DNA of 64,000 nucleotides from Candidatus Poribacteria bacterium (GTDB taxonomy: Bacteria > Poribacteria > WGA-4E > WGA-3G): positions 3,488,001 to 3,552,000 of the forward strand of contig OZ240248.1 in the NCBI GenBank assembly GCA_965198235.1, written 5' to 3'. Each line of letters starts with the position of its first letter. Within the stretch, counting starts at the first letter, position 1. Shown here in pieces: positions 15,542-34,190 of the stretch. Under the pieces are notes generated by a model. That model did no database searches and was not told the DNA's origin. It saw only the letters and a program-made list of their open reading frames with translations. A program made the translations under genes and the position numbers.

Positions 15542-15547
15542 GAAATT

Positions 15548-15725: not shown

Positions 15726-15870
15726 TCGCGAGCTGGGGGAAATCCGAAGAAATGCCCTATCAATCGCAGAAATCCGCAGAAATGCCCTATCAATACGCAG
15801 AAATACCCTATCAAAAACCCCAAGCAAAAACCCCAAGCAAAAACCCCAAGCAAAACACTCGCTCCTACAG
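15726..15870. repeat. REP palindrome interrupted by a 121-nt modular A/C-rich insert
   Basis: TCGCGAGCTGG[15737-15857]CTCGCTCCTACAG. The intact form is the reverse complement of 59655-59680. Confidence 0.8.
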
Positions 15871-15936
15871 GGGATCCGCTCACAAAATTATTAAACGACT
15901 ACAGATAGGTTGCGCGGGTTTATCGAGCATCTGCGA

Positions 15937-16707
15937 TCAGGCATCATAGAAATAGTTCAATACAGTGTTATGCAGGACTCCATTTGTCGCTATTAATGAA
16001 GCGGTATCTTTCGTAATGGCTTCTCCTTGTATATCCGTTACCTTCCCACCGGCTTCCCTCACGATAACGCTGATGGCGGCGATGTCCCAGACGCTAATCG
16101 CCGCTTCAATGACAGCATCCACCCTTCCAGAAGCCACGAGGTGATACATGTAGAAATCGCCAAAGCCTCTCGTGCGTGCAGCGTCGGTGATAAGGTTATA
16201 GATGCCGGGAAAGGTGCCCTTCTCTACGAACCACTTCAGTCCACCGTGGCATACCATTGCATCTTTGGGTTGCGTCACGCTGGAAACGGTTATCGGTTCG
16301 CCATTCAGGAAAGCACCGCTGCCTGCTTCCGCATAGAGGAGTTCGTTCAAAAGTGGTGCGTTGGAAACGCCGAGGATAAGTTCTTCACCTTTCATCAAAG
16401 CAATCTGTGTGCCGAAGATCGGAATTTTTCGGATGTAATTCTTTGTAGCATCAATCGGATCAATAATCCAGACATAAGGGGAATCCCCTTCTTCGATGCC
16501 GTACTCTTCACCTAATAAACCGTGGTCGGGAAATGCCTGTTTGATGGTTTCTCGGATAATTTTTTCCGCCCCTCTATCGGCAAGGGTTACCGGCGTTTCG
16601 TCGGCTTTCAGTTCTACTTTCATGGTGTCGCCGGTGTAGTAAGCGGTGATGATTTTTTCAGCGTTTTTCGCCGCTTCCAACGCGACGGTTAAAAATTGAC
16701 TGGGCAT
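15937..16707 (-). CDS. hisN: Inositol monophosphatase family, probable histidinol-phosphatase
   Basis: WIIDPIDATKNY, RTRGFGDFYMY and WDIAA motifs match the HisN-type IMPase subfamily. Confidence 0.75.
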   Translation of the reverse strand: MPSQFLTVALEAAKNAEKIITAYYTGDTMKVELKADETPVTLADRGAEKIIRETIKQAFPDHGLLGEEYGIEEGDSPYVWIIDPIDATKNYIRKIPIFGTQIALMKGEELILGVSNAPLLNELLYAEAGSGAFLNGEPITVSSVTQPKDAMVCHGGLKWFVEKGTFPGIYNLITDAARTRGFGDFYMYHLVASGRVDAVIEAAISVWDIAAISVIVREAGGKVTDIQGEAITKDTASLIATNGVLHNTVLNYFYDA

Positions 16708-16766
16708 AGATTCTCCTATTTAATTCGTCAAATCAAACGGCACATCGGTGTGTGCTGATTCTTTTT

Positions 16767-18581
16767 CTATCGAAGTGAAATCGCAGGACAATAAATTCCT
16801 TTCCATTCGCGGGACCACCATGTTCCTTCTGAACGTTTTGTAGTGTGGTCGGTGAAGCTATAATCGTAAAGAGTTGCGCGGACATAACGTGGTGGTGTGT
16901 CTGGGAACGGATTTTCTGCCAACAATTGTAGCACCTCAGACCTGCCTTGTAGCAGTCCTCCCATAAAATTGAGAAACCACGGTGTCCTTTGATAACTGCC
17001 TTGTAGGGCAGCAAACCACATCTGCCAATCGAGGCGTGGTTGATGCGGAGCAACCCATTTTGGCGCAACAGTCAGATTTCCCGGTTTCCATCGAAATTGG
17101 TAAGTTTCCCATGTTATCCGATCGTTGCTACCTTCAACGATAATTTCCGGGCGTGATTCCGTCATATCTGCAAAGAGTCCGTAGGTATTCACACTCCGAA
17201 ACGGCGCGATCCAAGCGACATCTGGAAACCTTATCTCTCTGAAAAGTTGTCCACCGAATCGGATGCCGCTCAACAGAAAGAGGAGCGTTGCCACTACCGC
17301 TACGCCGATGCGTCTATATCGGTGAAGGGGTTGTTCGCCGAAGCGGATAGGGGGCATGAACCGTTTTGGGAGCAACCCTTTCCACGTCACATCGTCAATC
17401 AGAAGGAGACATAGCGCAATCGTCAGCAAGTTGAAAAAGCAGTAATTCCCTGTTAGGATGATTAGCAGTTGCAGAGTGACTAACCCGATACATCCCACAG
17501 TCCGTAAACGTCGCGGTGCGAAAATCAGGAACGGGACGACCAATTCAGCCGCGAACATACCGATGATTGAGGCTTTCTGGAACCATTCCGGCAACTGGTG
17601 GGCATACCATCCGAACCCTGTCGGCAACGGCTGTGTTTCATAATGGTAGTTGAGAGCGGTGAGGTTTCGCCACACCTCGTCACTGGCGAGTTTAACAAAC
17701 CCGGAGGCAAACATCAGACGGAACAGGAGCCAACGTAAAAGCCACAGAAACGCAGCGGAGGGTTGGGATGCACGTGTGAATGTATCACGTAGTTGCAGCG
17801 GCGCGAAGAAGATTGCCAGAAAGCCCACCTCTAAGAGCAGGACATCCCACTGGAAGCTTAGAAAAACTTGTCCTGCTGTCACAAGCGACAGATAAAACAC
17901 CCACAAACCGACTAAGGTAAATGAAGGGACAAACCCTGCGATTAAGACGAAGGACAGAAGCACACCACTGGCGCACAATAAATTGAGAGAAGCATCCGAT
18001 GCGTTCAGCCAGAACAGCGTCGGAACGAGGTAATAGCCTTCTGTCTCGATTTGCTGACGGATAGCCTCTAAATACTGTTCTGCTGGTAAAATCCCGTTGC
18101 TCCCAATGAGTCCGTGAATCTGCACCCACAAGGACAAAAAGGCGATGAGGTAGATACAACCGAGTCCGCGCAGGAACAGCCATCTCGAAAAGCAAAACGA
18201 TGTTCTCTCCGTATGTGTCCCCCACAACCATCGCGTCACAGCAGAGAAAAACGGGCGCTGCTGTGCAATGAAACCGTAAATTCCTTCGGACACGCTCGCG
18301 AAACCCGGCAAATGGTAGTAGCACCAGAGAAACCGACCGTTGTTCAAGGCACGCAGGACAGCCTCTGCCCCGCTCAAAACCGTCCCATTCTGAAGAATCA
18401 ACTGAACCGAATTCTCAAACGCTGAAAGCGGTATCTCTGGGAATTGTGCAGCCACCTCTTGGGACGGTGCGTAATCAACACGGTCACCGGTGATGTGCTG
18501 CCATTGAGCAATCCAATATCGGCAAAAGTCGCAGGCGTTATCGTAAACAAGGAGCGGTTTGCTGCTTTGTGATTGCATCAA
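16767..18581 (-). CDS. Lipase maturation factor family protein with an N-terminal DCC (DUF393) thiol-disulfide domain
   Basis: N-terminal YDNACDFC; LMF motifs FQWDVLLLEVG, HYETQPLPT and PHQPRLDWQMWFAAL. Confidence 0.92.
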   Translation of the reverse strand: MMQSQSSKPLLVYDNACDFCRYWIAQWQHITGDRVDYAPSQEVAAQFPEIPLSAFENSVQLILQNGTVLSGAEAVLRALNNGRFLWCYYHLPGFASVSEGIYGFIAQQRPFFSAVTRWLWGTHTERTSFCFSRWLFLRGLGCIYLIAFLSLWVQIHGLIGSNGILPAEQYLEAIRQQIETEGYYLVPTLFWLNASDASLNLLCASGVLLSFVLIAGFVPSFTLVGLWVFYLSLVTAGQVFLSFQWDVLLLEVGFLAIFFAPLQLRDTFTRASQPSAAFLWLLRWLLFRLMFASGFVKLASDEVWRNLTALNYHYETQPLPTGFGWYAHQLPEWFQKASIIGMFAAELVVPFLIFAPRRLRTVGCIGLVTLQLLIILTGNYCFFNLLTIALCLLLIDDVTWKGLLPKRFMPPIRFGEQPLHRYRRIGVAVVATLLFLLSGIRFGGQLFREIRFPDVAWIAPFRSVNTYGLFADMTESRPEIIVEGSNDRITWETYQFRWKPGNLTVAPKWVAPHQPRLDWQMWFAALQGSYQRTPWFLNFMGGLLQGRSEVLQLLAENPFPDTPPRYVRATLYDYSFTDHTTKRSEGTWWSREWKGIYCPAISLR

Positions 18582-18632
18582 AGTTCCCGACGAAGTTTGC
18601 GTAATCCATCGGACATTAACACTGGGAAGAGA

Positions 18633-19862
18633 TTAACGCCATGCCTGATGAATTTTGGCGATAGCTTCCACAATCTGATCCATATCCGTTGCTGAACTGA
18701 GGAAGAGATTTTGGAAAAGCCATACACTCTGCTCGCAGACTGATGCTGCGTTTGGGCACGGCAGCGACCGGATGAGGTGCGGATATTTCTCCGCGACGTA
18801 TGCCATTCCCGGTTCCTGTGAAAGCGGGGAACGGTAACCGATAGAACACGGAATACCTTCGGCAGAGAGCGCGTCTACAAATTCCTGTCGCGATTTACCG
18901 TCAAATCCTTGGGGGTCATACTTCAAGCAGTAGAGATGATACCCGTGTTTGGTAACCCACGGGGCGAGTTTCGGTGGTGTGATACCCTCAATCGCTTTCA
19001 AAGCGTTGGAGAGATAGGTGGCGTTTCGGTTGCGGAGATCGGTTTGTCCCTCTAACAGTTCCAGCCGTACCAACAATATTGCAGCGAGATACTCTGAGGG
19101 ACGGTAGTTCCATCCGAGTCGCGGATATTCCCATCTCGCCCCACCGGGCGCACGTCCCACATTCATAAAGGCGCAGACCCGGTCGTGAATATCCTTATCG
19201 TTTGTGGTAACCATACCGCCTTCACCGGAAGTCAGATTCTTTGACGCTTGGAAACTAAACGCACCGACATCGCTGAGAGATCCAACTTTCTTCGTCTGGT
19301 ATTCGGCGCCGTGTGCTTGTGCGGAGTCCTCAATAATCGCAAGTTGATGACGTTGTGCGATCTCTCGCAATGCCCCCATATCTGCTGGATGACCACCGAG
19401 ATGGACGGGTAGGATCGCGCGAGTTTCAGGACGAATTGCTGCTTCCACTGCCTCTGGATCGATCGTAAACGTCTCCGGTGAAATGTCTACAAACGCTACA
19501 GTACATCGACGTTCCAATACGGCACTCGCCGTCGCTACGAACGTGTAGTTCGGCACAATAACCTCGCCACCATCACTAAATCCGTCGAGATCCAGCGCAG
19601 CAGCTAAGGCGGCACTGATTGAATCGGTGCCGTGCGGCATGAAGAGGGCGTAGTTTGTCCCGGAATACTGGGCATATTGTTCACCCAAACGCTCAATCAT
19701 CGAGCCACCGGAGCCTTCATTCGCGCTCAGGTACACTTCACGGAGCAGCGGTTCAACTTTTGACTCCCACTCTTCAGTCGTGGTAAGTGGCCATGAGGAC
19801 CACGGATCGCTTTCTGTGTTTCGTACAGGTGTGCCGCCTGAAATCGCTAATTGGTTGGGCAT
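18633..19862 (-). CDS. DegT/DnrJ/EryC1/StrS PLP aminotransferase
   Basis: YTFVATASA, IEDSAQAHGA and FSFQASKNLTSGEGG motifs. Confidence 0.93.
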   Translation of the reverse strand: MPNQLAISGGTPVRNTESDPWSSWPLTTTEEWESKVEPLLREVYLSANEGSGGSMIERLGEQYAQYSGTNYALFMPHGTDSISAALAAALDLDGFSDGGEVIVPNYTFVATASAVLERRCTVAFVDISPETFTIDPEAVEAAIRPETRAILPVHLGGHPADMGALREIAQRHQLAIIEDSAQAHGAEYQTKKVGSLSDVGAFSFQASKNLTSGEGGMVTTNDKDIHDRVCAFMNVGRAPGGARWEYPRLGWNYRPSEYLAAILLVRLELLEGQTDLRNRNATYLSNALKAIEGITPPKLAPWVTKHGYHLYCLKYDPQGFDGKSRQEFVDALSAEGIPCSIGYRSPLSQEPGMAYVAEKYPHLIRSLPCPNAASVCEQSVWLFQNLFLSSATDMDQIVEAIAKIHQAWR

Positions 19863-20080
19863 GCAAATCTCCGATCTTCTCTGTTATTTTGCACTTTGCG
19901 TGAAGTCGAACTCCTTACGGCTATTATGGTGAATTATCAAGATATACAGACATTTCAGTGAACAATGGATGACAAAACACTTTCCATCGCTGGCGAGGTT
20001 TCCGGGTTTGTAGTAGGGAAACCATTCATGGTCTCCCGTCAAATGGTAGAGGTACCCTTTGTGAGTGTCTGCTATCTGTT

Positions 20081-20800
20081 TTAGCGGATAGGATTTCCAT
20101 TTTCATCTACATACACGACTTCCCAGCCCGCTGGTTGCACACCGGTATTCAAGAGGTGAAGCCTCTGTTTCTCAGAAGGTTCGGGACCCTTAACCGAGCT
20201 ATGCTCTCCGTTCTCCGATTTCGTTATAGCGCGTGTCGTGTGCCAAATATTAGCCGTTGATTCCGTTTTTTGTACGTAGATTCTTCCGGGAATTTGCGGT
20301 AACGCGTTTTCACCTATTACAATCCACTCTTCCATTTCTGGGTTGTCTTGATTCGCTTCAGTGATGAGTTGATGTTCATGTTGATACTTTTGGATCAGGG
20401 TGTCAATATAACTCGATTTAACGATCTCCCAGTCATTTTCGGTGTACAATTCTTCCAAAATTAGATCCGAGCGTCCATCGAGGTATTCACTATAGGTTTT
20501 GAAATTCTCTATCATGATACCTTTATTGAGGAGCATCTGAAGCCATTCTTCACGTGGATATTTGGTATCCATATCTGCCAACGTGAACTCAATATGTCGT
20601 TTTTTGCCATAAAGTGTCTCCGAAACAGTGGTCCTCTCATGGGAACTGTATCTGGCATCGAACGCCTCCATAAGTGCCTCAACGGTTTGAGGTCCAGTAT
20701 ATTGCTCTGTTTTTGCCTTGGAATCTAACTTCAAGTAACACCCAACAAAGATAATTCCGAGGATGATCAAAAATAGAAAAATTCGCACGGTATATCTCAT
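20081..20800 (-). CDS. Hypothetical exported or membrane-anchored protein
   Basis: N-terminal hydrophobic segment, RBS GGAAAGGA and a clean 239-aa ORF. Confidence 0.7.
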   Translation of the reverse strand: MRYTVRIFLFLIILGIIFVGCYLKLDSKAKTEQYTGPQTVEALMEAFDARYSSHERTTVSETLYGKKRHIEFTLADMDTKYPREEWLQMLLNKGIMIENFKTYSEYLDGRSDLILEELYTENDWEIVKSSYIDTLIQKYQHEHQLITEANQDNPEMEEWIVIGENALPQIPGRIYVQKTESTANIWHTTRAITKSENGEHSSVKGPEPSEKQRLHLLNTGVQPAGWEVVYVDENGNPIR

Positions 20801-21055
20801 GATTTTTTTCCTTTCCTATAGCATTTGCCAACTTTCTACAGAATATACTCTATTCGCGGAAAAAACACAAGAAAAAATAGTATATTTGACAATCGGGTGA
20901 TGAATGTGTAGCAAGACATGGTTAACAAAAATGGCGAGGTCCGAGACCCTCGCCATATATTTGCAACTTTAACGCACTAATGATCGGTTAACGGACGCTG
21001 AAACTGTTTTCTAATTCGTTTTTCAGCCTTCTTCATTTCTGATTTACATTTCGGA

Positions 21056-22120
21056 TTAGCGGTCCCCCACTAATTGACGGATTGCCTCCACCGCTGTCTC
21101 TGTATCTTGGAGCGGTTTGTTCGACACATCGGAAGTGAGAACATTGGCGATATACGTTTCTAAGCCGTCGAGTCTGCACCGACTCACAATGGAATGTTCT
21201 TCCATATACCGATAGACTTCATATCGCTTCGGCAGTCTGGCACTTTCTTGTGACAACGTTAGAACGACAACGCTACGTCCACTGCTCGCTGCCTCACACA
21301 CCATTGAAAAACTGTCCGCGGTGACAATGAGCAGATCGCTTGAGGCGAGAATGGCTTGGTAGGGATCTTCAAGTTCTGAAGGAGTGTCAGGGGTAATAAA
21401 CAATGGGCACCAGTCAGTATGTTTTATGGTCGATACCAAATGTCCCGTCACATCTGGTGGCGTTCGGCGAGAGGTCGTTACGAATACCTGCGCGTTCATC
21501 CTTTCTGCGGTTGCTTTGCAAATCTTACTGAGCCGTTCGGCATCCTCTATCGTGATAGTTTCATGCCGATCTGTCCCACCGAGTAGAATGCCAATGTTCG
21601 GACAATCCGATAGGTTCAGTTCATCCTTCAATTGTTTCCGTTTGACATCCAGCATGTCTGGTGAAATAGGGTTTGGCACGCCGATTGTTCGGCAAATATT
21701 GTCTTTACGCGATGCGTGGTGCCAAGAGATCATTGGAAGGATTGCGAGGTCGAAATATCGGGTGCCTACCGGTGAGGGTCTACGACACGTGACTGTCATG
21801 GCACCGAGAATTCTCCCAAGGAGTAGGTTAACCGCCGCCACAGATGAGCCTGTTGAGAGGATAATATCAGCGGTTTGGCGTTGTACCAGTGCGTTGTAAG
21901 ACTCAGGGGTGAGGCTCCACCGCAGAAGTGTGTGGATAAGGGACATGGAAAGCGGCACACCTCCAAAAATACACGCAAAAACCCGCAGGAGGTTGTCACG
22001 CCATTTGCGCCGAAATTGTATCTCAAGCCATGCCGTTTGGCATTCAGGCATTTTTTCGACTATGCCTAAGGATTGCTTGTAATGCCCCGGTTTCTTGTCG
22101 CTTAAGATAACAACTTTCAT
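21056..22120 (-). CDS. ELM1/GtrOC1-like putative nucleoside-diphosphate sugar-binding protein
   Basis: LSDKKPGHYKQSLG, VTTSRRTP and VTADSFSMVCEA motifs. Confidence 0.88.
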   Translation of the reverse strand: MKVVILSDKKPGHYKQSLGIVEKMPECQTAWLEIQFRRKWRDNLLRVFACIFGGVPLSMSLIHTLLRWSLTPESYNALVQRQTADIILSTGSSVAAVNLLLGRILGAMTVTCRRPSPVGTRYFDLAILPMISWHHASRKDNICRTIGVPNPISPDMLDVKRKQLKDELNLSDCPNIGILLGGTDRHETITIEDAERLSKICKATAERMNAQVFVTTSRRTPPDVTGHLVSTIKHTDWCPLFITPDTPSELEDPYQAILASSDLLIVTADSFSMVCEAASSGRSVVVLTLSQESARLPKRYEVYRYMEEHSIVSRCRLDGLETYIANVLTSDVSNKPLQDTETAVEAIRQLVGDR

Positions 22121-22192
22121 TTTTTAATTTATGACCTCTGGGCCGCTGCGTCCGTTGTCCTTGCGGGTCTCTGCTTAATTCCCGACTGGTTT

Positions 22193-22239
22193 CTGTAGGC
22201 GCGGGGAAACACCCTATCAAAAACACTCCGATTCCCAAC
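22193..22239 (+). repeat. REP interrupted by a 22-nt insert GGGAAACACCCTATCAAAAACA
   Basis: CTGTAGGCGCG[22204-22225]CTCCGATTCCCAAC. Compare the intact TGTAGGAGGGAGCTCCGATTCCCGAC at 42401. Confidence 0.75.
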
Positions 22240-22335
22240 TTCTGCACCAAAAACGTAGCCTGCAACAACGGCGCAGGCGATTCTTTGGTGAAAACCGTCA
22301 AAACACAAACCCCGCCATTTCTCCGCAAGGTATAA

Positions 22336-22733
22336 TTAAAAAAAGGAATACTCAATCAGTTCCGTTGTCCCGTATTCGTCTTCGACTTTGACAATACCGA
22401 CATGCGGGGCAAACCATAGCGTCTGCTTCTGTTGAATTGTCTCATCTCCCGAAAAAAGAGTCTGCGTGATTTCAGTCTGGTATTCTATCCGATATGTTTT
22501 CTCAAAGTTACCAGTTGCGGTGTATCCTTGAAGATCCGATAGTGCTTTCCGTTAATATCTGTCTCGCCACTAACTTCTCGTGTCCATTGGGACCCATCAG
22601 AATTTCTGTAAATCCATTGGCTTCCAATGGCATCAGGAAAGTAGTTTGGCATCTGTTCTATCGGTGGTGTTTCATCCGAACCACATCCGAATAGAATAAA
22701 AATAACACACAGAATCAGAGAAATCGGTCGCAT
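22336..22733 (-). pseudogene. Lipoprotein gene with an apparent internal deletion and frameshift
   Basis: The N-part has a lipobox (LFGC) and NYFP...W.Y. A second frame continues TGNFEKTYRIEYQ...TLWFAPHVGIVKVEDEYGTTELIEYSFF* to 22336. Confidence 0.7.
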
Positions 22734-22734
22734 T

Positions 22735-24033
22735 TCATTCCTTCAGTGCGTCTGCTACCAGTTCTTTTAACGCTCTGCCTCTCGCGTGGTGCGAGATCAA
22801 AGTGCCGTCTCTGGCAATGAGCCACGGTGCAGGTATTGCGCGAATGCCATACTGTCGTGAAACTGGGCTCTGCCATCCTTTCCCGCTAAACACCTGTCGC
22901 CAAGGAATGTCATTCTCTTTCAGATAGTTTCGCAGCCTATCTTCATCAGTGTCAAGGCTGATCCCAATAATGTCAAATCCTTCGTCCTTATAGGTATCGT
23001 AGACCTTTATGACGTTCGGGATTTCGGAGATGCACGGAGCGCACCAGACTGCCCAAAAATCGAGTAGGACGACTTTTCCATGGTATTGCTCAAGCGAAAT
23101 CGGATTACCCTCAAGATCCATGGCAGAAAAGTCGGGCACAGTCTTACCAATTAACGCCAGTGCAGGATCCGCCTTTATGCGGTATTCATTTGCCAGTTCG
23201 GCGTTGCCTAATCTTTCATGAATCTCGGCAAGTTTTCTGAAGACACTACGGTTTTCTGGGGACTGCTCCTCAAGTTTCGTAAAAAGCTGCAGCATCTCTT
23301 CATCTCGATTCATTATCTCAAACATATCACCGAGGACAAAGTGATCTCGAATGTTCTCAGGTTTTAGGATCTCCTTGAAACGAGTGATAAGTTTCTCGGC
23401 ATCTTTTTCTCGTTCAACCTTCATGTAGAGGCTAACAAGTACTAAATATACATCACTAAGATGTGCATTGTCCGGATGCTGCTGGATTCCGGCATCCAAG
23501 GTAGCAATGGCTTCTTCAATGCTCTCGTATATCTCTTCAGGTTTGTATTCCCATATATTGGATGATCTGTAAACTCTTGACGAAAAACTCAAGTTTAGAA
23601 CCGCAAAGTCTTCGTTTGCATGATGGCGACAACGCACGAGAGGCATGGCATCGCCATATACCTTGCGTTGCTCAGTTTTCCATTCTCTATACCCAGGGTT
23701 AAGCTCGTAACTATAACTCACGGACATTTCCGGATCTGCGTTCTGAGAATAAATCGGTTTGCCACCTGCTTCATCTGCCGGACAGATGAGCGCATTACCA
23801 TCTGTCAAGTGTTTTGGATGGATATCTGAAAGCCACACCGGAAAATCACCGTGTTCTTTCTGGTAAACTTGGATTGACTTGCCGATTGCGATTAAATTTT
23901 GTGTGCAAATCTCAATGTTTTTCTGCTCCTGTTCCGCATCGGAGACTTCGATCTCTCTTTGCGCCGTTACTTCCAGGTTCGCAGAGGTCATCAGTAGCCC
24001 CAACACGATTCCTACGGTCAGAATTGCTTTCAT
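22735..24033 (-). CDS. TlpA-type thiol-disulfide redoxin with TPR-like repeats and an N-terminal extension
   Basis: C-terminal PDFSAMDLEG...VLLDFWAVWCAPC; signal peptide; helical repeat middle region. Confidence 0.88.
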   Translation of the reverse strand: MKAILTVGIVLGLLMTSANLEVTAQREIEVSDAEQEQKNIEICTQNLIAIGKSIQVYQKEHGDFPVWLSDIHPKHLTDGNALICPADEAGGKPIYSQNADPEMSVSYSYELNPGYREWKTEQRKVYGDAMPLVRCRHHANEDFAVLNLSFSSRVYRSSNIWEYKPEEIYESIEEAIATLDAGIQQHPDNAHLSDVYLVLVSLYMKVEREKDAEKLITRFKEILKPENIRDHFVLGDMFEIMNRDEEMLQLFTKLEEQSPENRSVFRKLAEIHERLGNAELANEYRIKADPALALIGKTVPDFSAMDLEGNPISLEQYHGKVVLLDFWAVWCAPCISEIPNVIKVYDTYKDEGFDIIGISLDTDEDRLRNYLKENDIPWRQVFSGKGWQSPVSRQYGIRAIPAPWLIARDGTLISHHARGRALKELVADALKE

Positions 24034-24366: not shown

Positions 24367-24380
24367 ATGTAGGAGCAAGT

Positions 24381-25713: not shown

Positions 25714-26583
25714 ATGCGTATACTCTCTGCTGATGAAATGGTTCTACCTGTTCTTCAGTATATTGCTGATGGTCAGGAATATCGTCGTCTACACATTATT
25801 GATATGCTTACCGAACATTTTTCGCTAACTAAGGATGAAAGGTTGAAATTAGGTAAAAGTGGTAAAATGGAAGTATCTTTGATGAACAGAGGACTCATAG
25901 AACGATCTAAAGAAAAGCATTATCGAATAACCGATCACGGTCTTGAATTCTTGAATCAAAATCCAGAAGGAGTTCCTGCACTTGATAGAGGGACTGAAAC
26001 TGAAATAGAATCGCCTGCCCCTAGCTCCCACCAAAGGATTGAAGAAAATAACCAGTATCCCGAAGAATCTATTGAAGAAAATTATCAAAAAATCCGAGAA
26101 AGATTGGCAAAAGGGCTACTACAGCAAATCAAGAACAACACGCCTGCTTTTTTCGAGGAATTAGTTATTGATCTACTCGTTGCAATGGGATATGGTGGTT
26201 CACAAGAAGACGCTGGTAAAGCCGTTGGACGCAGTGGGGACGGTGGGATTGACGGTATCATTAAAGCGGATCCGCTGGGTCTTAATGTCGTTTACATTCA
26301 AGCAAAACGATGGGAAGGAAATGTTGGAGCACCACCGGTTCGAGACTTTGTCGGAGCATTAGATGGGGAGGGAGTCCAGGACGGAATTTTCATTACCACC
26401 TCAGATTTTAATCCAGCGGCTAAAGAGTTTGCAGAAAGAAGTTCCAAGAGGGTTATCCTTATCAATGGCAGCCAACTCGCTCGGTATATGATAGATCACA
26501 ACGTCGGCGTTTCCACAACAAAAACTTACGAAATCAAACGCGTAGATTCCGATTATTTTGCTGAAAACACCAAAGATCCGTAA
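25714..26583 (+). CDS. mrr: Mrr-family (type IV) restriction endonuclease
   Basis: N-terminal wHTH region; FFEELVIDLLVAMGY, GDGGIDG, YIQAKRW and GIFITTSDF motifs. Confidence 0.92.
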   Translation: MRILSADEMVLPVLQYIADGQEYRRLHIIDMLTEHFSLTKDERLKLGKSGKMEVSLMNRGLIERSKEKHYRITDHGLEFLNQNPEGVPALDRGTETEIESPAPSSHQRIEENNQYPEESIEENYQKIRERLAKGLLQQIKNNTPAFFEELVIDLLVAMGYGGSQEDAGKAVGRSGDGGIDGIIKADPLGLNVVYIQAKRWEGNVGAPPVRDFVGALDGEGVQDGIFITTSDFNPAAKEFAERSSKRVILINGSQLARYMIDHNVGVSTTKTYEIKRVDSDYFAENTKDP

Positions 26584-26599
26584 CGATGTTAGCAATAAC

Positions 26600-26730
26600 A
26601 GGACTTACGCAAATTGAGTAAAAGAGCAATATATTTCACCAAAAGATGCCTCGCAGTGAGAGTATTTCAGTCATTTAACCCCCTAAATCCCCCTTATCAG
26701 GGGGACTTTAAGAGGAAATGCGTAAGTCCT
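26600..26730. mobile_element. 131-bp MITE-like element with 12-bp terminal inverted repeats
   Basis: AGGACTTACGCA ... TGCGTAAGTCCT, containing a CCCCCTTATCAGGGGG palindrome. A solo copy of the left end sits at 62843-62866. Confidence 0.6.
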
Positions 26731-26747
26731 AAACAAGAGAGAAGAAA

Positions 26748-28349
26748 ATGAGAACGTTCGGAACCCAAGGTCCCGTAACTCCTGAAGTAAACTACGTTGT
26801 GAGTCGCGACGAGGAGCTTGCGGATTTTATCGACAGAGTGAAAAGGGGCAAGTACATCGTCCTCTTTGCGCCTCGACAGACGGGCAAGACGACCTTTTTC
26901 CGTGCTGCTATAGATGCCCTCATAACCGAAGCATATTTCCCAATTCAACTAAATTTCGAGGCGTATGTTGACTTAACGCCTGCCGCTTTTTACGGCTATC
27001 TTCTCAGGGATGTTTGCAGGGCAATTGAGTCCGTTTTCCAGAGACGAGGCAGCGTCCCCCCTGAGACTTTGGAACAATTTTTGACGGACGTTGAAATAAC
27101 AGACCATGTTTCGATGCGAAATTTCTTCCAACAACTCGCTGGTTTTCTGGTACACCCTGATAGCGAGCAGAAGGTTGTCCTTATCATTGATGAATTTGAT
27201 GCTATTCCTCCAGAAGCCGTGCGTGGTTTTCTACATTCACTCCGCTCCATTTACCTCGACAATTCGGGTTTCCGATGTCCTTATAGCGTCGGCATTGTCG
27301 GGGTCAAGAACATCACACAACTCAACTATGACCGGTCAATCTCCCCGTTCAATATTCAAGATGAGTTCCACTTGCCCAATTTCACACCCTTGCAGGTCCA
27401 TGAGCTGCTTGAGCAGTATAGCAACGAAGTAGGTCAAGACTTCGCACCTGAAGTTATCACTTCTATTCACAAGCAGACGGCTGGGCAACCGTTCCTCGTC
27501 AATCGGTGCGCGCAGATTGTTACTGAAGCAATAGGCGTTCCTAAAAATGAAACGATTACGATGGCGCACTTTTCAAGGGCGCATACGCAGCTCCTTGAGG
27601 AAGGGAACGCCAATATTAGTCATCTGCTTACCAATATCCGCAGGGACCGCCGTTTTGAAAGCGTCCTCATGAGAATCGCTTCTTATGAGAGAGGTTTGCG
27701 TTTCAATCCAGACGATGAAATCATAGCCGAACTCGCTATGTATGGGGTAATTGCGAAAAGTACTGACGGAATGTGTGAAATCATGAATCCGATCTATCAA
27801 CATCGCATTCTACAAGCGTTCAAACCGCTATTTAATGGGCTGGAAAATGAGTATTTCTCCGAAGAAAATGGGGATGATTTCATTGATTACCTTACCGTTG
27901 ATGAAGTGATCGAGATGGGCCCGCTCCTTGATAACTTTCAGGCGTTCATTGCGCGAGCCGGTTTTCGTATCCTGCAAGTACCAGATACGCCACAAGAGTA
28001 TGTCGGCCAACATCTACTTTATGCCTATCTGGACCATTTTGTCGGTATCATTGGTGCTAATATGTTTCTTGAAGTCCAAACCGGACGCGGGAGGATAGAC
28101 CTCCTTATCGTCCACAATCAACGAAAATACATTGTTGAGACAAAAATCTGGGAAGGCGACAGGTACTATCAGGCGGGCAAGAAGCAACTCGCTACGTATC
28201 TCAAATTGGAGAACGCGCAGGAAGGATATTATGTTGTATTTGATCATCGGAACAACCCTACGGCACGCGTCGAGACGGAGACGGTGAACGGTTTGACAAT
28301 CCGAAGTTACGTTATTCCTGTGATACAAGAACAACCCTCATCAACTTAG
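26748..28349 (+). CDS. AAA-type ATPase with a C-terminal PD-(D/E)XK-like nuclease domain
   Basis: Walker A APRQTGKTT, Walker B LIIDEFD and C-terminal GRIDLL...IVETK. Confidence 0.85.
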   Translation: MRTFGTQGPVTPEVNYVVSRDEELADFIDRVKRGKYIVLFAPRQTGKTTFFRAAIDALITEAYFPIQLNFEAYVDLTPAAFYGYLLRDVCRAIESVFQRRGSVPPETLEQFLTDVEITDHVSMRNFFQQLAGFLVHPDSEQKVVLIIDEFDAIPPEAVRGFLHSLRSIYLDNSGFRCPYSVGIVGVKNITQLNYDRSISPFNIQDEFHLPNFTPLQVHELLEQYSNEVGQDFAPEVITSIHKQTAGQPFLVNRCAQIVTEAIGVPKNETITMAHFSRAHTQLLEEGNANISHLLTNIRRDRRFESVLMRIASYERGLRFNPDDEIIAELAMYGVIAKSTDGMCEIMNPIYQHRILQAFKPLFNGLENEYFSEENGDDFIDYLTVDEVIEMGPLLDNFQAFIARAGFRILQVPDTPQEYVGQHLLYAYLDHFVGIIGANMFLEVQTGRGRIDLLIVHNQRKYIVETKIWEGDRYYQAGKKQLATYLKLENAQEGYYVVFDHRNNPTARVETETVNGLTIRSYVIPVIQEQPSST

Positions 28350-28387
28350 AGTAGGTGTCCCCTGATTTGCTACCTGCCTATCAACCA

Positions 28388-29569
28388 TCAAACCACTTCC
28401 ATCCAAACCCCCGGCACGAACCCCGGATACTCTCCCTCACTGAACGCTGGATAATAGACATCCTCGCCACTGAAATCGTGAACCGTTTCTCCACCGCTGC
28501 TGTTCGGAATATGCACCCTACAGGTATATTCGCTCTCTCTGAAAAGTTGCTGCGGTGTCGGTGTAGACGCATCAACGCTATACGTTGACAGTGCCATCTC
28601 ATCCACCGTAATCCCCAACCCTGGCGAATTCGAAACCTGAATCGTCCCATCAACGACAGGGAGTCGCGTCTCAAGCAGATCCGATTCCCATAACTCATGA
28701 CACGTAATCGCTGGCAATTCCGCTTGCGATAACACCGCACCGAGATGCACCGAGTATGCCGTTGTGATACCCGTGCCGACCATCTGGAGCCAGTAAGGTT
28801 GCGCAAACGAAGCACAGAGCGCGTTCGTCCGCAGGAGCGAGTTCACACCACCGCCGACAACGAACCCACCGCAACAGCGCGCATGCAAACACGATTCGTT
28901 GAAATGCTCGACGATCCGATTCTGAACAGCCGCTTGCAATCGCGCCGCACCCTCTACGTCCGTGCCGAGATAGTACGGACTCTCGTATATGGCGACGTTC
29001 GGATGTTCATCTAATTGTTGCAACACGGGGATCGCGTTATCCGCAGTCCGTAGAAACCCGTTGAAATCAATATCGAGCCGATAGTTTGCTGGTACGGCAT
29101 CCCCGACGACGTTCACCTGCGCGAAGATGTCCCGCCACGGACGCGCTTTCAGTTTCGCAGACGTGTAACCCCGTTTGACCGATTCTTGGACTTCCGCGAC
29201 CCAGTCTTCTGGCGGCATATCGATGTCCCACCACGAAATAGGACACCTCTCACGAACCTTAGCTCCGATGAGTTGATAGGCTGGCACATCTACGGATTTG
29301 CCGACTGCGTCGAAAAGCGACATCTGGATACCGAACCCGATGCTGTCGTCGTTCATACATGCGAACGCGTTCTGTCCGATGACTTGTTCAATATTCGCCG
29401 ATTCATCTGCTAAATTTTCGCCGTATCCGACTACGCCGTTACTAAGTTCGACTCGGTAAACGTGAACCCGTTCACCGTGTGTCAAAGCACGGTGCATGTG
29501 TCGGCTGACCCGTTCATGATAGAATGGCACGTTCAACGGAATCGCTTCGAGATGTTTGATGCTGAGCAT
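28388..29569 (-). CDS. Mandelate racemase/muconate lactonizing (enolase superfamily) enzyme
   Basis: DAVGKSVDVPAYQLIG, KLK, DIDFN and YESP motifs. Confidence 0.85.
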   Translation of the reverse strand: MLSIKHLEAIPLNVPFYHERVSRHMHRALTHGERVHVYRVELSNGVVGYGENLADESANIEQVIGQNAFACMNDDSIGFGIQMSLFDAVGKSVDVPAYQLIGAKVRERCPISWWDIDMPPEDWVAEVQESVKRGYTSAKLKARPWRDIFAQVNVVGDAVPANYRLDIDFNGFLRTADNAIPVLQQLDEHPNVAIYESPYYLGTDVEGAARLQAAVQNRIVEHFNESCLHARCCGGFVVGGGVNSLLRTNALCASFAQPYWLQMVGTGITTAYSVHLGAVLSQAELPAITCHELWESDLLETRLPVVDGTIQVSNSPGLGITVDEMALSTYSVDASTPTPQQLFRESEYTCRVHIPNSSGGETVHDFSGEDVYYPAFSEGEYPGFVPGVWMEVV

Positions 29570-29855
29570 AAACTCCTCCCCAAATTGATACTGTCGCTAA
29601 TCAGGGTTTCAACCTCGTGTTTCGCTTATATTCCTCCAAATTGTAGCACACTTCCAAAATTGTGGGTAAAAATATTGCCAGGGCGGACTCCCTGTAGGAG
29701 GGATCCCCGAATCCCGACTTCTCCGCATATATTTCCTTGAAGAAAACCGACGTGATTTGCAACGAAAAGTGAAAATAGGCAATCGTGAGTTCTATTGAGC
29801 ACTGACAATCCAAAACTGAACACTGACGACTGAGAACTGATAACTAACAACGCAG

Positions 29856-29884
29856 TTGACACGTCCGCCTTTTGTTGGTATAAT
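29856..29884 (+). promoter_or_regulatory. Perfect sigma70 promoter of the phyH-like operon
   Basis: TTGACA-17 nt-TATAAT. Confidence 0.8.
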
Positions 29885-29940
29885 ATCTTTAACATTTCCG
29901 ACATTAAAACACCGTGACGTTCACAAGCAAGGAGCGAATT

Positions 29941-30810
29941 ATGGCAAGAATCGAACCCTTTTCTGTTTCAAATGACCTCTTAGATCAACCTGAAAAACTC
30001 AGAGAACGCGCACAGCAGGACGGTTATCTCTTCTTTCGGGACTTGATTGATGCCGATTCTATCTACAACCTGCGCCGAGATTTCTTGGGGATCTGTCATC
30101 GACACGGATGGGCACAGGGTGGCGCGGCATTGATGGACGGTGTCCGCACCGGCGGTCCCTTCATGGAAGGCGATGACGGTTATTGGCCCGTGTTAGACGA
30201 ATTCCAAAGTTTGGAATCCTTCCACGCCTTCGCACATCATCCAGCGATTTTAGATGTCTGTGACAAAATCTTCGGTGAGAAGACACTCGTGCATCCGCGG
30301 AATATTGGAAGAATTATGTTCCCGGAGAACACAAAATACACGACACCTGCACATCAAGATTTCATCCATATCCGGGGAACGGAAGAGACCTATACCGGAT
30401 GGATACCGCTTGGGGATTGTCCAGAAAAGTTGGGTGGGTTGTCCGTGTTATCTGGATCGCATCAAAGAGGTATATATCCAGTCAAACCGGCGTTCGGCGC
30501 GGGAGGAGTCGGTGTTGATACAGCACCCTTAGAAGCAGATGGATTCTACTGGGTTGGTGGTGATTACGGTATCGGCGATGCGCTTTTCTTTCACAGTCAC
30601 GTCGTTCACAAGGGACTCCCGAATCAGACCTCGGATCGGATACGTCTCTCGGTGGATTATCGCTATCAAGGCGGCTCCAAGCCAGTAACAGACGGATCGC
30701 TTTTACCGCATTTCAACCGGATGGTGTGGGACGAAATCTACAAGGACTGGGCTTCCACGAAATATCAGTATTATTGGAATGCGTTTGATTTGAACAGAGT
30801 TGAACGGTGA
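29941..30810 (+). CDS. Phytanoyl-CoA dioxygenase (PhyH) family Fe(II)/2OG enzyme
   Basis: TPAHQD, WIPLGD, GDALFFHSHVVH and RLSVDYRY motifs; AAGGAG RBS before the ATG at 29941. Confidence 0.92.
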   Translation: MARIEPFSVSNDLLDQPEKLRERAQQDGYLFFRDLIDADSIYNLRRDFLGICHRHGWAQGGAALMDGVRTGGPFMEGDDGYWPVLDEFQSLESFHAFAHHPAILDVCDKIFGEKTLVHPRNIGRIMFPENTKYTTPAHQDFIHIRGTEETYTGWIPLGDCPEKLGGLSVLSGSHQRGIYPVKPAFGAGGVGVDTAPLEADGFYWVGGDYGIGDALFFHSHVVHKGLPNQTSDRIRLSVDYRYQGGSKPVTDGSLLPHFNRMVWDEIYKDWASTKYQYYWNAFDLNRVER

Positions 30811-31595
30811 AAAGTATTCTGCGGATCCTATTCTATGGCACTTTCTGCTTTATAGTGAGCCTATCTGTGCAGGCACCCGATATGGTTCTCATTCCAGCGG
30901 GCGGGTTCCAGATGGGGAGCGACGATGGAGAACGCGACGAAAAACCGGTGCATACCGTTTACCTTGATGCGTTCTATATCGACCCATACGAAGTAACAGT
31001 TGGGGAATACAAACGGTTCCTTGAAGACACAAACCATCGACCCTTACCGAACTCGGTTTCTCGGACCTCACCAACCGATCAGCATCCTGCCGTAGAGGTA
31101 AGTTGGCACGATGCGATGGCGTATGCCCAATGGGCAGGGAAGCGATTACCTACCGAAGCCGAATGGGAAAAAGCTGCACGAGGTGGTTTAATCGGACAGG
31201 ACTATCCATGGGAAGGTCCGATTGATGCGAACAAAGCAAATTACGGCAAGAAAACGAAATCCGGCACGCATGAGGAACGCACGACACCTGTAGGGACATA
31301 TCCTGCCAATGGCTACGGTTTATACGATATGTCTGGAAACGTCGCGGAGTGGTGCCTTGATACATATCAACGAAAGTTTTATGCGAATGGGCAGCAGCGC
31401 AATCCTATTGCTGGTGCTGAAAACGTTCAACAGATTATCGCAGATGCTGATGCTAATAGAGAACGGCGTGTTGTCCGTGGCGGGTCTTGGAGTTTCAATG
31501 CAAAAAGCGTGCGCGTCGCAAATCGTCTCGCTGAAAAACCGCCTCTGTTGAGTAGTGATGTTGGGTTTCGTTGCGCGCGCGACGTGAAACCTTAA
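30807..31595 (+). CDS. Formylglycine-generating enzyme (SUMF1/FGE-sulfatase) domain protein
   Basis: RLPTEAEWEKAARGG, NGYGLYDMSGNVAEW, RGGSW and GFRC motifs. Confidence 0.93.
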   Translation: MKSILRILFYGTFCFIVSLSVQAPDMVLIPAGGFQMGSDDGERDEKPVHTVYLDAFYIDPYEVTVGEYKRFLEDTNHRPLPNSVSRTSPTDQHPAVEVSWHDAMAYAQWAGKRLPTEAEWEKAARGGLIGQDYPWEGPIDANKANYGKKTKSGTHEERTTPVGTYPANGYGLYDMSGNVAEWCLDTYQRKFYANGQQRNPIAGAENVQQIIADADANRERRVVRGGSWSFNAKSVRVANRLAEKPPLLSSDVGFRCARDVKP

Positions 31596-31650
31596 AAGTA
31601 GTAGGCACACGCCGTGTGCCGTCATAATAGTTCCAAGGAAAAAGAAGCCA

Positions 31651-32748
31651 TTGATCAAATTGCAACAACGAAAACCTAATACAGCAGATATTATCTACTT
31701 TGTAGTGGTGTTAATCGGATGGATAGGAATCGCTGTTTTACCTGTCGCCGCTGAAAACTACACCGGTGATTTTTTGACGAACGGGGTTGGCGGTAGAGCC
31801 CTCGGATTGGGCGGTGCCTACGTAAGCATCGCTGACGATGCAACCGCTACCTATTGGAACCCCGCCGGCATCGCGGGTATCCCCGATAATTATCAATTCT
31901 GTCTGATGCACGCCGCACGGCGTTCCGGATTAGGCGCGTTCAACTATATCAGTGGCACAACACAAGTCCTGTCGAAACTCAACCTCGGATTGTCGTGGCT
32001 CCGCGCAGGGGTAGACGATATTCCTATCTATCCACTCGTTCCTGCGTTCGATCCCAACATTAGTGCAGAGGCACGGCGAAACATCGCGAAAAACCGACCC
32101 AGAGAATCCGATTTCGTTCCAGCGGGTTACCTAAACGACAGCGAAAACGCCTATATTTTGACACTTGCCACGCGTTGGGTCGTGAGTCAGTCGTGGTGGG
32201 ATAATTTCGGGAAGGATTCATTGCCACCGGAGTTTATGTGTGGTATAAACACCAAACTGATTACGCAGCGCCTGAACGGCGGGGATCTTGATACCTATAA
32301 TTATGGGAGTTGGGGATACGGGTTTGATGCCGGATTCCTCGTCCGTTTGCCCGATTTTAATGCCCTTTTCGCTTTGGAGGACTTCGGCAGTCTCGCCTTT
32401 GGTGTCAATCTTCAGGACATCTCAAAAACGACTTTAACTTGGAATACCTTGTCTGCACCTAAGGAATCTATTCCGGCGAATTGGAATATCGGAGTAGCGT
32501 ATACGAACAATCACGTTTTCAACCGAGAGATGATTCTTTCCTATCAGTGGCAACAGCGTTACAGCGGGCAAACGCATATCGGTATAGAATATCGTATCAG
32601 TGAACCGTTGGCACTCCGTGTTGGTTACCGGGATGCCCGCATTACAAGTGGAATCGGCATCCAGGTCCGCCAATTTCGACTTGATTACGCACTCCTCCTC
32701 GGCGACCTAATTAGCACACACTTTCTGAGTCTGTTATGGCATTTTTAA
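31651..32748 (+). CDS. PorV/PorQ (UPF0164)-like outer-membrane beta-barrel
   Basis: FLTNGVGGRALGLGGAYVSIADDATATYWNPAG; C-terminal DYA...H..SL..F. Confidence 0.82.
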   Translation: MIKLQQRKPNTADIIYFVVVLIGWIGIAVLPVAAENYTGDFLTNGVGGRALGLGGAYVSIADDATATYWNPAGIAGIPDNYQFCLMHAARRSGLGAFNYISGTTQVLSKLNLGLSWLRAGVDDIPIYPLVPAFDPNISAEARRNIAKNRPRESDFVPAGYLNDSENAYILTLATRWVVSQSWWDNFGKDSLPPEFMCGINTKLITQRLNGGDLDTYNYGSWGYGFDAGFLVRLPDFNALFALEDFGSLAFGVNLQDISKTTLTWNTLSAPKESIPANWNIGVAYTNNHVFNREMILSYQWQQRYSGQTHIGIEYRISEPLALRVGYRDARITSGIGIQVRQFRLDYALLLGDLISTHFLSLLWHF

Positions 32749-32785
32749 TTTGAAGCCCTGCAAGGATAGACAACGAAGGATACTT

Positions 32786-34015
32786 CTAAACGTTCGGTCT
32801 CGACAAGTTCGGTTGATCGCGTAGCAAAATCAGGAGCGGTGCCAATACCACCGGAATCATCACTAACCCATCGAGCATGATAGGCAAACCGTATTGATCT
32901 CCCAGAACACCTACGATTTTATTCAGTAATCCGCCGACACCCCACGCCGCACCCATCATAAAACTCGACGCAATGTTTTCATGCCCGCGTAAGATCATCT
33001 GTGCTAAGATGATGTTAACCGTAATTGAACTTGAGAGAATCACATTCCCTAAAAAGAGGAGCACAAGGAAACTCGGACCATCAGAGTGCAGCGAGGCATA
33101 GAGAAGCGGCGGCGATCCGAGGAGTGAGACTAACAACAGAACGTAGGTGTTGACTCGGCTGATAAGCCAACCACTCGACATGATACCCATGGAACCTGCG
33201 AAGATGAAGAGTGCAATCACAAGTGAACGCGTTTGGTCCGGATAATTTTGGTCATCCAGATAGATAGATAGGAAGTTTTCCAACCCGACTGCTGTGACGG
33301 TTCGGAACGCCGCAATAATAAATAGCACACTGAGGGGTAGAAGGTGTGGGCGGGCGACAGTCCAAAAAGGTTCTTGCGCTCTCGGTTCCTCGTCTAACCT
33401 TCCGCGCGGCGTAGCGGTGAGATCCAGAGACTTCTCGAATTTCAGCACTTTCGGCACCAACAACGCTAAAAGTACCCCAGGTATCATTTCCCAAACCAAG
33501 TATTGTAAGCCGAAATTGTAGGGAATGAACATCAGCACCAACGGACCGAGTGCCCGACCGATGTTACCGCCTGTGAGAAAAATAGATGTCCCCATACCTC
33601 TACCTTCTGAGGCGAGCGCGCCGGCATACGTCGTCGCTTGTGGATGGAATGAGGCAATGCCGATGCCGCCTATAGCTAATAACAGATATACGACACGAGG
33701 CGAAGGAGCGACCCATAGAAGGCTTAAACCGATCGCAGTGAGGCCGACACCAAACGTCAGGAAGTGCACCGTCCGTACCCGATCCGACAGCCACCCGAAG
33801 AATATTTGTCCGAGTGAGCTAAAGACGCTATAAATCGAGATGAAGTTGCCGGCTAAACTGTTTCGTGTTGCCGCTGAGGTTGCTAACTTTGTCAGCAGGA
33901 GGGGTTGCAGATGCGACAGTAGCGTTGCGTAGGAGTCAAGGACGGTGTGCGATAACGTCAGAAAATAGAACTGTTTCCGAGAAGACGCTTTAGAAAGGTT
34001 TTGAGGGTTTTCCAT
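32786..34015 (-). CDS. MFS transporter (Fsr-like)
   Basis: FGWLSDR, FHPQA and SIFLTGGNIG motifs; about 12 TM segments. Confidence 0.9.
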   Translation of the reverse strand: MENPQNLSKASSRKQFYFLTLSHTVLDSYATLLSHLQPLLLTKLATSAATRNSLAGNFISIYSVFSSLGQIFFGWLSDRVRTVHFLTFGVGLTAIGLSLLWVAPSPRVVYLLLAIGGIGIASFHPQATTYAGALASEGRGMGTSIFLTGGNIGRALGPLVLMFIPYNFGLQYLVWEMIPGVLLALLVPKVLKFEKSLDLTATPRGRLDEEPRAQEPFWTVARPHLLPLSVLFIIAAFRTVTAVGLENFLSIYLDDQNYPDQTRSLVIALFIFAGSMGIMSSGWLISRVNTYVLLLVSLLGSPPLLYASLHSDGPSFLVLLFLGNVILSSSITVNIILAQMILRGHENIASSFMMGAAWGVGGLLNKIVGVLGDQYGLPIMLDGLVMIPVVLAPLLILLRDQPNLSRPNV

Positions 34016-34127
34016 GAGGCGAAATAGATACCGCTTTTCTATGAAGATTTAGATAGTGTGTATTGTAGAATACATCCATCTAAAAAGCAAATCTTTTTTC
34101 CCGTAAACGCTATCGCCGCTATTTTTC

Positions 34128-34190
34128 TCTAAGAGGGGGAAATCCGCAGAAATCCGCAGAAATCCGCAGGGAAACACCCTATGCTCGCGA
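34128..34190 (+). repeat. Degenerate REP interrupted by (AAATCCGCAG)x3-GGAAACACC
   Basis: TCTAAGAGG[GGGAAATCCGCAG AAATCCGCAG AAATCCGCAG GGAAACACC]CTATGCTCGCGA. Compare the intact TGTAGGAGCGAGCTGTGCTCGCGA at 59859. Confidence 0.65.

Follow-up and report, generated by a model that had tools for sequence, protein, structure and literature searches.

The stretch of DNA analysed here, called the window throughout, comprises 64,000 nucleotides, positions 3,488,001-3,552,000 of the 5.12-Mb chromosome of a Candidatus Poribacteria bacterium (contig OZ240248.1 of assembly GCA_965198235.1; genome G000, which has a second contig of 44 kb). Repetitive extragenic palindromes (REPs) are interrupted at three loci of the window by A/C-rich modular inserts, and intact palindromes are present elsewhere in it (Table 1), as a preliminary description of this DNA had reported. 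The three inserts belong to a family of ultra-small dispersed repeats restricted to one genus, and we propose, with a probability of roughly 0.6, that this family spreads by copying from existing copies.

The array at locus 1 starts with the head GGG, followed in its first half by AAATCCGAAG, AAATGCCCTATC, AATCGCAG, AAATCCGCAG and again AAATGCCCTATC, and in its second half by AATACGCAG, AAATACCCTATC, three copies of AAAAACCCCAAGC and the tail AAAACA. A paralogous host copy at G000:C1:4229994-4230014, with flanks as at locus 1, carries the minimal word only. The element at locus 3 is truncated at its 3' end and has lost its tail, which agrees with the less clean boundaries noted earlier for this locus. 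Internal periodicities of 10, 13, 21 and 30 nt were detected in the window with Tandem Repeats Finder, and an Rfam search of the window returned one tRNA only and no family matching the repeats.

Table 1. Inserts, palindromes and selected copies of the repeat family. Positions are those of the window unless a contig of G000 is named.
Feature	Position	Strand	Remark
Locus 1, left arm of interrupted GTAG-type REP hairpin (TCGCGAGCTGG)	15726..15736	+	Intact GCGAGCTGG-AG-CTCGC found 7-8 times
Locus 1, 121-nt A/C-rich modular array	15737..15857	+	Window sequence; between TCGCGAGCTGG and CTCGCTCCTACAG
Locus 1, right arm and tag of interrupted REP (CTCGCTCCTACAG)	15858..15870	+	Window sequence and empty/filled pairs
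Locus 2, minimal 22-nt element GGGAAACACCCTATCAAAAACA	22204..22225	+	REP-B-like host, CTGTAGGCGCG and CTCCGATTCCC flanks
Locus 3, 47-nt element, GGGG (AAATCCGCAG)x3 GGAAACACCCTAT	34136..34182	+	Decayed REP-like host; followed by GCTCGCGA
Intact REP-B-like unit (TGTAGGAGGGAGCTCCGATTCCCGAC)	42401..42426	+	Intact relative of locus 2 host; DNA fold: weak 4-bp stem only
Intact REP-A hairpin (CTGTAGGAGCGAGCTCCAGCTCGCGA), empty-site comparator	59655..59680	-	Reverse complement is TCGCGAGCTGG-AG-CTCGCTCCTACAG, intact counterpart of locus 1 host; DNA fold: 6-bp stem, -6.7 kcal/mol
Intact REP-A hairpin, ACAG loop	59859..59882	-	DNA fold -6.4 kcal/mol; commonest intact form, 17/42
Copies with 49-nt cargo	G000:C1:753152, 895390, 1052239, 1557112, 2070049, 2704984, 3727214, 4626995 and others		
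Filled tnpB copies	G000:C1:1208222-1208242 and 2576404-2576424		21 nt for 8 nt, net +13 nt, frame broken
Near-identical 62-65 nt array inside long open reading frames, five copies	G000:C1:4768745, 1415071, 2775702, 5054471, 1098219	sense	

The DNA to the left of locus 1 (window 15250-15640) is a repeat itself, with a 100% copy at G000:C1:2116477-2116866 and a 77% copy at C1:4641704-4642069; further genomes of the genus hold copies of 70-89% identity, and synteny with relatives stops there. At the region of locus 2, the relative G018 has an element-like stretch that is partly deleted. Short tandem arrays with periods of 7 or 14 nt (CTGACTG- and GCCGACT-like) lie beside REP units at window 34197-34226 and 59888-59909 and resemble cyanobacterial heptamer repeats, and in genome G014 a heptamer run directly adjoins an element within a gene.

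The repeat family

The minimal unit of the family is an A/C-rich word of 21-23 nt, GRG-AAACACCCAAGC-AAAAAC with head consensus TTGRRG, and is laid out as a head (TT)GRRG, a core AAAYRCCC followed by AAGC or TATC, and a tail AAAAAC(A). In longer copies, which reach 200 nt, the head and tail are retained and enclose a variable number of 9-15 nt modules, namely AAATCCGCAG, AATACGCAG, AAAYRCCCTATC or its variant in -AAGC, and AAAAAC(AC)CCC-TATC or -AAGC. A k-mer scan of G000 yielded 342 runs, 13 kb in total (median length 24 nt, longest run 200 nt); the 287 runs with the core signature were taken as curated copies, 126 on the plus and 161 on the minus strand, three of them on the small contig. Thus, the common orientation of the three inserts in the window, which had been remarked on earlier, is a chance of n=3. 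In 251 copies the sequence could be parsed from the first AAAY to the last AAAAAC, and among these the minimal 18-nt core, preceded by a head of 3-6 nt, was present in 124 (exactly AAACACCCAAGCAAAAAC in 72 of the 124), while distinct cores numbered 119 and ranged in length from 18 to 194 nt.

Modules of the inserts recur far beyond chance. AAATCCGCAG is present on the chromosome 77 times in forward and 79 times in reverse orientation, GAAATCCGCAGAAA in G000 56 and 52 times (reversed control, 0), and CCCAAGCAAAAAC 107 and 149 times (control, 0 and 1). The sequence logo of the 5' end read TTGRRG/AAAY and that of the 3' end AAAAAC/(A/C)C(C/T). The ends of the word, TTGRRGAAAC and GCAAAAACA, are not complementary, so that there is no terminal inverted repeat; being A/C-rich, the word offers hardly any bases that could pair, and arrays in filled loci were essentially unpaired in DNA folds. 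Twelve copies hold between head and tail an unrelated cargo of 49 nt, made up of a hairpin GGATTTAGTCT-GGGAA-TAGACTAAATCC and then ATTCCTTGTATTACATTGC, which is partly duplicated in some of them. The two ends are the conserved part of the copies, and the interior varies. Parsing of the arrays as recursively nested whole units was tried and rejected, since removal of a complete inner unit leaves junctions that, by inspection, are never found elsewhere.

Empty and filled sites

Pairs of empty and filled sites were drawn from paralogous host repeats; replaced target bases are written below between slashes. The filled allele always consisted of the left host sequence, (T)(T)GRRG-AAAY...AAAAAC(A) and the right host sequence, with no duplication and with 0-9 host bases missing. 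The most populated example is H7, a 53-nt hairpin repeat with the junction CATC/A/ACTCG (empty form CATC-AA-CTCG), of which 22 copies are empty and 13 filled, the inserts being 23 nt (three copies), 33 nt (one), 46 nt (six), 69 nt (two) and 79 nt (one) long. REP-A hosts gave the junctions GAGCA/CAG/CTCGC and GCTGG/AG/CTCGC, hairpins with ACA or TCCT loops gave GGATAC/AAT/CCTCGCC, GGTTAC/AA/ACCGCTCC and TTCCT/A/ACCGCACC, and further junctions were AAGTTC/AA/ACCCG, AAATC/CG/CCCTCC and CAGAT/ACCG/CCCCGC. Nested pairs, GCTT/G/GGTRTTTC, were found within reverse-complemented copies of the element at no fewer than six loci. These pairs bear out the earlier view of the inserts as true, modular insertions into pre-existing palindromes, with neither target duplication nor terminal inverted repeats. 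The accompanying statement that the AG of an AGCT core is replaced is correct for the REP subtype with a TGGAG loop (8 intact copies) but not for the majority of hosts, and 15 of 18 intact REP-B units, for instance, have GAA and not GAG.

Of 19 independent targets tabulated by hand, about 15 have a pyrimidine-rich right flank, (A)CYC, and the left flanks of about 20 independent targets had no motif or tetranucleotide in common. The preference for a C/T-rich 3' flank resembles the element's own continuation (AAAAAC/ACCCC or CCCC). Since (A)CYC motifs are common in the loops and arms of REPs and other hairpin repeats, the inserts appeared as interrupted palindromes.

Movement of the word is evident from protein-coding genes. 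Among 14 tnpB paralogs, two have it at the same site, where GTT(G/C)AGGT is replaced by CGAAACACCCAAGCAAAAACA. The two filled paralogs are ~80% identical to each other and each is nearer to an empty copy; being non-sister, they represent independent hits. In a conserved gene for an 818-aa protein the site is empty in G014 and G036 (ACGCG/ACTCTC), whereas G000, G018 and G050 have exactly 21 additional nt (GRGAAACAYCCAARCAAAAAC) and G004 has 45; the orthologous insertion is clean, with host bases neither duplicated nor lost. A second gene has the element in G000, G018 and G014 and not in G050, G036 and G004, and a third has it in seven species, with differing lengths, while G004 looks empty. As the species patterns differ between loci, several insertion events must have occurred in the history of the genus.

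Genomic contexts of the copies

The preliminary description had considered the inserts specific for REPs and their AGCT core. The host REP-A unit has the form CTGTAGGA-GCGAGC-loop-GCTCGC-GA, with 4-5 nt between the arms. Under strict patterns, G000 has 42 intact REP-A and 18 intact REP-B units, and only 14 and 10 of the 287 elements lie inside REP-A and REP-B, respectively. The specificity therefore did not hold, and most copies of the modules occur outside these REPs, a case that the preliminary description itself had named as refuting its reading. Clustering of the flanks of 250 copies gave at least 46 contexts, 30 of them unique, a lower bound as single linkage chained 144 of the 250 copies into one cluster. 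Other hosts include H3 and H7, the arms of further hairpin repeats, a tnpB gene family, conserved protein genes and unique DNA.

A perfect flanking stem of at least 6 bp was found at 54 of 287 elements, as compared to 32 of 861 random genomic sites and 95 of 1427 shuffled partners. Complementarity of the flanks as a universal feature was rejected on this count; hairpins are frequent but not obligatory. By a crude open reading frame (ORF) heuristic for genes, 221 of the 284 chromosomal copies lie outside genes, which cover 84.5% of the chromosome, and with the same gene set the 284 copies showed no orientation bias towards neighbouring genes. Tabulation against the replichores, suggested in the preliminary description, showed a ratio of plus to minus copies that stays unchanged along the chromosome and across the turning points of the GC skew of G000, the cumulative skew being asymmetric with its minimum at 0.37 Mb and its maximum at 4.05 Mb. 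This distribution is the profile of a selfish repeat.

Distribution across genomes

The family is confined to one genus of sponge-dwelling Poribacteria, with 0 to about 290 copies per species. The tail 13-mer has 256 occurrences in G000. Of 20 further genomes of the genus, 19 have 3-183 each and G048 has none; 80 genomes from 16 other genera of the order have 0-4 each. GAAATCCGCAGAAA was found in 17 of 18 other genomes of the genus and in one of 12 genomes of other genera, once. In five complete relatives, searched for the 21-nt word with up to two mismatches, the counts were 0 (G048), 6 (G123), 10 (G016), 220 (G018) and 249 (G036). G016 has 23 intact REP-A units yet 10 elements, and the targets alone therefore do not yield copies. 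Contigs bearing arrays were also recovered from three DNA-type runs from two further studies and from one metatranscriptome, where presence in an RNA library does not equal transcription. Recurrence in 19 of 20 other genomes of the genus and in independent runs means that the family is not an artefact of one assembly, which the preliminary description had considered.

The strands of the word matches are unevenly used in G018. Genome-wide there are 74 forward and 146 reverse matches, and a hand count of exact and one-mismatch matches gave ~35 reverse versus 6 forward at G018:C1 ~0.8-2.4 Mb, with balanced strands elsewhere; G000 shows no such bias.

Arrays shared between loci

An identical 57-nt core was found at three unrelated loci, and identical cores of 64, 53, 41, 39 and 30 nt each at two unrelated hosts. 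Derived module variants such as AATACGCAG are common to arrays at many loci, which points to copying between loci. The relation of old to new arrays could be followed in genes. Where the gene of a 2232-aa protein encodes the signal peptide, a minimal copy with point changes is present in five relatives, while G000 has a pristine array with the 57-nt core, identical to copies elsewhere in G000. Two other genic loci have the same array, or a variant with one substitution, in G000 where relatives have minimal or diverged copies. It is not credible that separate arrays grew step by step to the same 57 nt; the interiors of old copies have been overwritten from other copies. Simple slippage in place, another possibility raised at the outset, is insufficient, since whole arrays are identical at unrelated sites and overwrite old copies. 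Identity at unrelated sites together with overwriting points to copying from existing copies, and would not fit fresh synthesis at each site.

The five genic copies of a near-identical array (Table 1) are read in all three frames and encode Lys/Pro/Gln-rich peptides, e.g. WGNPQRKHPIKNPKQKPQAKTP and GKSAEETPYQKPQAKTPSKNP. Reading in three frames fits selection that filters frame-preserving lengths on a strand without stop codons. Practical effects of the family are broken REPs, a disrupted tnpB gene and lysine-/proline-rich peptides added to proteins in all three frames, and the repeats will confuse assembly and annotation of Poribacteria genomes.

We also considered whether the word is a functional cis-element under selection (as a site bound by a protein, as DNA-bending phased A-tracts or as an RNA motif) carried passively by host repeats. 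Its modules do start with A3-A5 tracts at a spacing of 10-15 nt, roughly in helical phase, old genic copies are kept across species, and array-bearing contigs occur in the metatranscriptome library. A passively carried element is nevertheless improbable, because the same host repeats exist both with and without the word, which shows it to be mobile in its own right; the genic copies read in all three frames, the copies that disrupt a tnpB gene, the lack of orientation or position bias relative to genes and the zero count in one complete genome of the genus argue in the same direction.

Mechanism of spread

New copies enter just upstream of (A)CYC, without target duplication and sometimes with replacement of 1-9 target bases, and arrays derived from other copies repeatedly take the place of old ones. 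For this step the conserved head and tail probably provide short stretches of homology of the kind used in gene conversion or template switching. Overwriting by whole arrays is shown by the sequence outcomes, and the molecular machinery is what we infer from them. The copying is most likely DNA-templated and part of replication or repair. A switch of template at a stalled fork or conversion of a short patch could bring it about, and hairpin repeats would then be preferred as places where single strands are exposed or replication stalls.

The preliminary description had proposed instead that the hairpin is cut at its AGCT core and that a reverse transcriptase (RT)-like, telomerase-like or primase-polymerase enzyme adds modules iteratively from a short template. 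The fixed order of modules, the arrays that end in truncated modules, the replaced target bases and the absence of duplications and inverted repeats would suit such a process. However, profile searches of G000 returned no match to RVT_1, Prim-Pol or Ku, in a genome that is 96.3% complete and with limited search sensitivity, and RVT_1 was likewise without a match in the complete high-copy genomes G036 and G018, whereas it was present in low-copy G016 and G123. Moreover, REPs of the AGCT type hold about 24 of 287 copies only, about half of the copies are one fixed word and not variable additions, and identical complex arrays at unrelated loci are unexpected from fresh stochastic synthesis. Iterative addition is thus very improbable indeed, and the spread is most likely neither reverse transcription nor de novo telomerase-like addition; what stands of the earlier proposal is that the sequence is copied from a template.

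A more serious rival is a protein acting in trans. The word would then be a non-autonomous nano-transposon, whose head TTGRRGAAAY and tail GCAAAAACA are recognised by a recombinase or transposase that inserts the word with any cargo beside (A)CYC, with homogenisation of the arrays as a side effect. The element begins with TG and ends with CA, its termini are conserved around a cargo of 5 to about 180 nt (including the 49-nt hairpin cargo in 12 copies), nesting occurs at one fixed position, diverged tnpB paralogs were hit twice at the same site, copy number varies between species from 0 to about 290, and G016 with its 23 intact REP-A targets has only 10 elements, all of which speaks for such a protein. 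The chemistry speaks against it: the absence of inverted repeats, of duplications and, in ~20 independent targets, of a 5' tetranucleotide argues against DDE-type and IS200/IS605-type transposition, and overwriting of old copies by whole arrays would be an abnormal outcome for a transposase. No candidate gene lies beside the elements. Y1_Tnp genes, tried as mobilisers of the word, were present in all five genomes tested and were rejected as they occur even in zero-copy G048. The six Y1_Tnp loci of G000 comprise three IS200/IS605-type elements and three genes of the REP-associated tyrosine transposase (RAYT) type with other REPs. On balance we regard the nano-transposon as doubtful.

Several points weigh against templated copying as the mode of spread and against parts of the evidence assembled for it. 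No enzyme or intermediate for the spread of the word was identified, and conserved termini with variable cargo have the look of a transposase substrate, for which reason the trans-acting protein is a serious rival. Template switching normally gives rare unique events and not families of hundreds. Microhomology at the left junction is weak and irregular, and the tnpB case has an unexplained CG between the host GAAG and AAAC. The intergenic DNA of locus 2 is rearranged among relatives, so that it offers no clean pair of empty and filled sites, and the gene set behind the intergenic statistic is a crude one. Contigs from the public runs are short and repeat-collapsed, and no population-level polymorphism could be read at the window loci; since contigs from all copies gather on the arrays, neither a length polymorphism of a given locus nor an excision or a transcript end is readable.

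Templated copying, if it operates as proposed, may be taken one step further, to a self-propagating 'conversion-driven' element with neither a protein nor a structure of its own. Terminal homologies of ~10 nt would suffice for general replication and repair enzymes to copy the word and any cargo into (A)CYC sites and over older copies, with biased gene conversion as the mechanism of transposition. We advance this tentatively, the odds being against it. If true, a conversion-driven element would be a new class of mobile DNA and might also explain the small dispersed repeats (SDRs) of cyanobacteria.

Comparison with known elements

The SDRs of Nostoc appear to be the closest elements described. 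Elhai et al. in 2008 reportedly defined SDR1-8 of Nostoc punctiforme and its relatives, one coherent clade, as dispersed words of 21-27 nt. These are said to lie inside palindromes (SDR5 in HIP1), heptamer tandem repeats and mini-transposons and to be nested in their own copies, and SDR4-6 reportedly share a predicted secondary structure with compensatory changes, RNA intermediates having been proposed. To our knowledge, the mechanism that mobilises SDRs has been unknown since 2008, and words of ~21 nt without inverted repeats, duplication or hairpin have been described only in Nostocaceae. Compared by description and not by sequence, the two systems are alike in unit size (a word of 21-23 nt here, the orthologous insertion being 21 nt), in restriction of the 287-copy family to a genus, in embedding within other repeats (REP-A, REP-B, H3, H7 and others), in heptamer repeats beside the hosts and in nesting at a fixed site. 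In contrast to the SDRs, the word belongs to another phylum, lacks self-structure, grows into modular arrays and has its old copies overwritten, and RT genes are absent here whereas RNA intermediates have been proposed for SDRs. A study of HIP1-rich cyanobacteria places no SDR-like repeat outside Nostocaceae among these organisms (PMC5861425). None of eight papers citing Elhai 2008 reports, by title, such elements in other phyla, and a search of the literature on Poribacteria with REP or MITE (miniature inverted-repeat transposable element) terms gave nothing relevant. Outside cyanobacteria, the word ranks among the smallest known elements that look mobile. An element of the SDR kind is now available in a phylum unrelated to cyanobacteria and represented by dozens of species genomes, many of them complete, with 0 to about 290 copies, and orthologous empty and filled sites together with overwritten old copies make the mechanism approachable by association genetics and long-read population data.

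BOX elements are modular repeats of leader, subunit and tail. The word family resembles them and the BrickBuilt element of Porphyromonas gingivalis in that leader and tail are conserved and internal subunits vary in number, and also in intergenic location and restriction to a species or genus. Pneumococcal BOX elements have been listed as MITE-like in a survey (PMC3184786), and BrickBuilt is a MITE with identical bricks of 23 nt, small inverted-repeat ends and 19 copies (PMC4596501). Unlike BrickBuilt, the word family has heterogeneous 9-15 nt modules, ends that are not inverted repeats, a minimal form of 21 nt and hundreds of copies. The word has neither the terminal inverted repeats nor the target-site duplication of a MITE, and differs from palindrome-associated elements derived from IS200/IS605 in lacking a subterminal hairpin and a fixed 5' target of 4-5 nt.

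Insertion sequences that target REP palindromes, such as IS1397 and those of Tobes and Pareja 2006, are reportedly full-size elements with transposase genes, inverted repeats and target duplications. REP hairpins are preferred targets in both cases, but the word has no transposase gene, inverted repeats or duplication and also inserts outside REPs.

As to the hosts, GTAG-tagged REPs are recognised by a GTAG tag at one end, a stem of 5-13 bp, a short loop and many copies (PMC3733652). REP-A agrees with this description in having a GTAG tag, a stem of 6-7 bp, a loop of 3-5 nt and 42 intact copies. REPs and REPINs are mobilised by RAYT transposases (PMC3733652; PMC3116915), whereas the A/C-rich word is not palindromic and was not associated with RAYT genes, a link the preliminary description had suggested looking for. 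At G016:C3:203264-204475 at least 13 tandem REP-A units with ~45-nt spacing flank a Y1_Tnp match (203816-204145) in a REPtron-like arrangement, which suggests that REP-A has its own RAYT.

Other features of the window

Two further ORFs of the window were annotated. An ORF at 12807-14246 has a poly(A) polymerase / CCA-adding head domain, and that at 38365-41463 encodes a protein of 1032 aa with the domains of a Type ISP restriction-modification enzyme (coupler, N6 methylase and C-terminal specificity domain).

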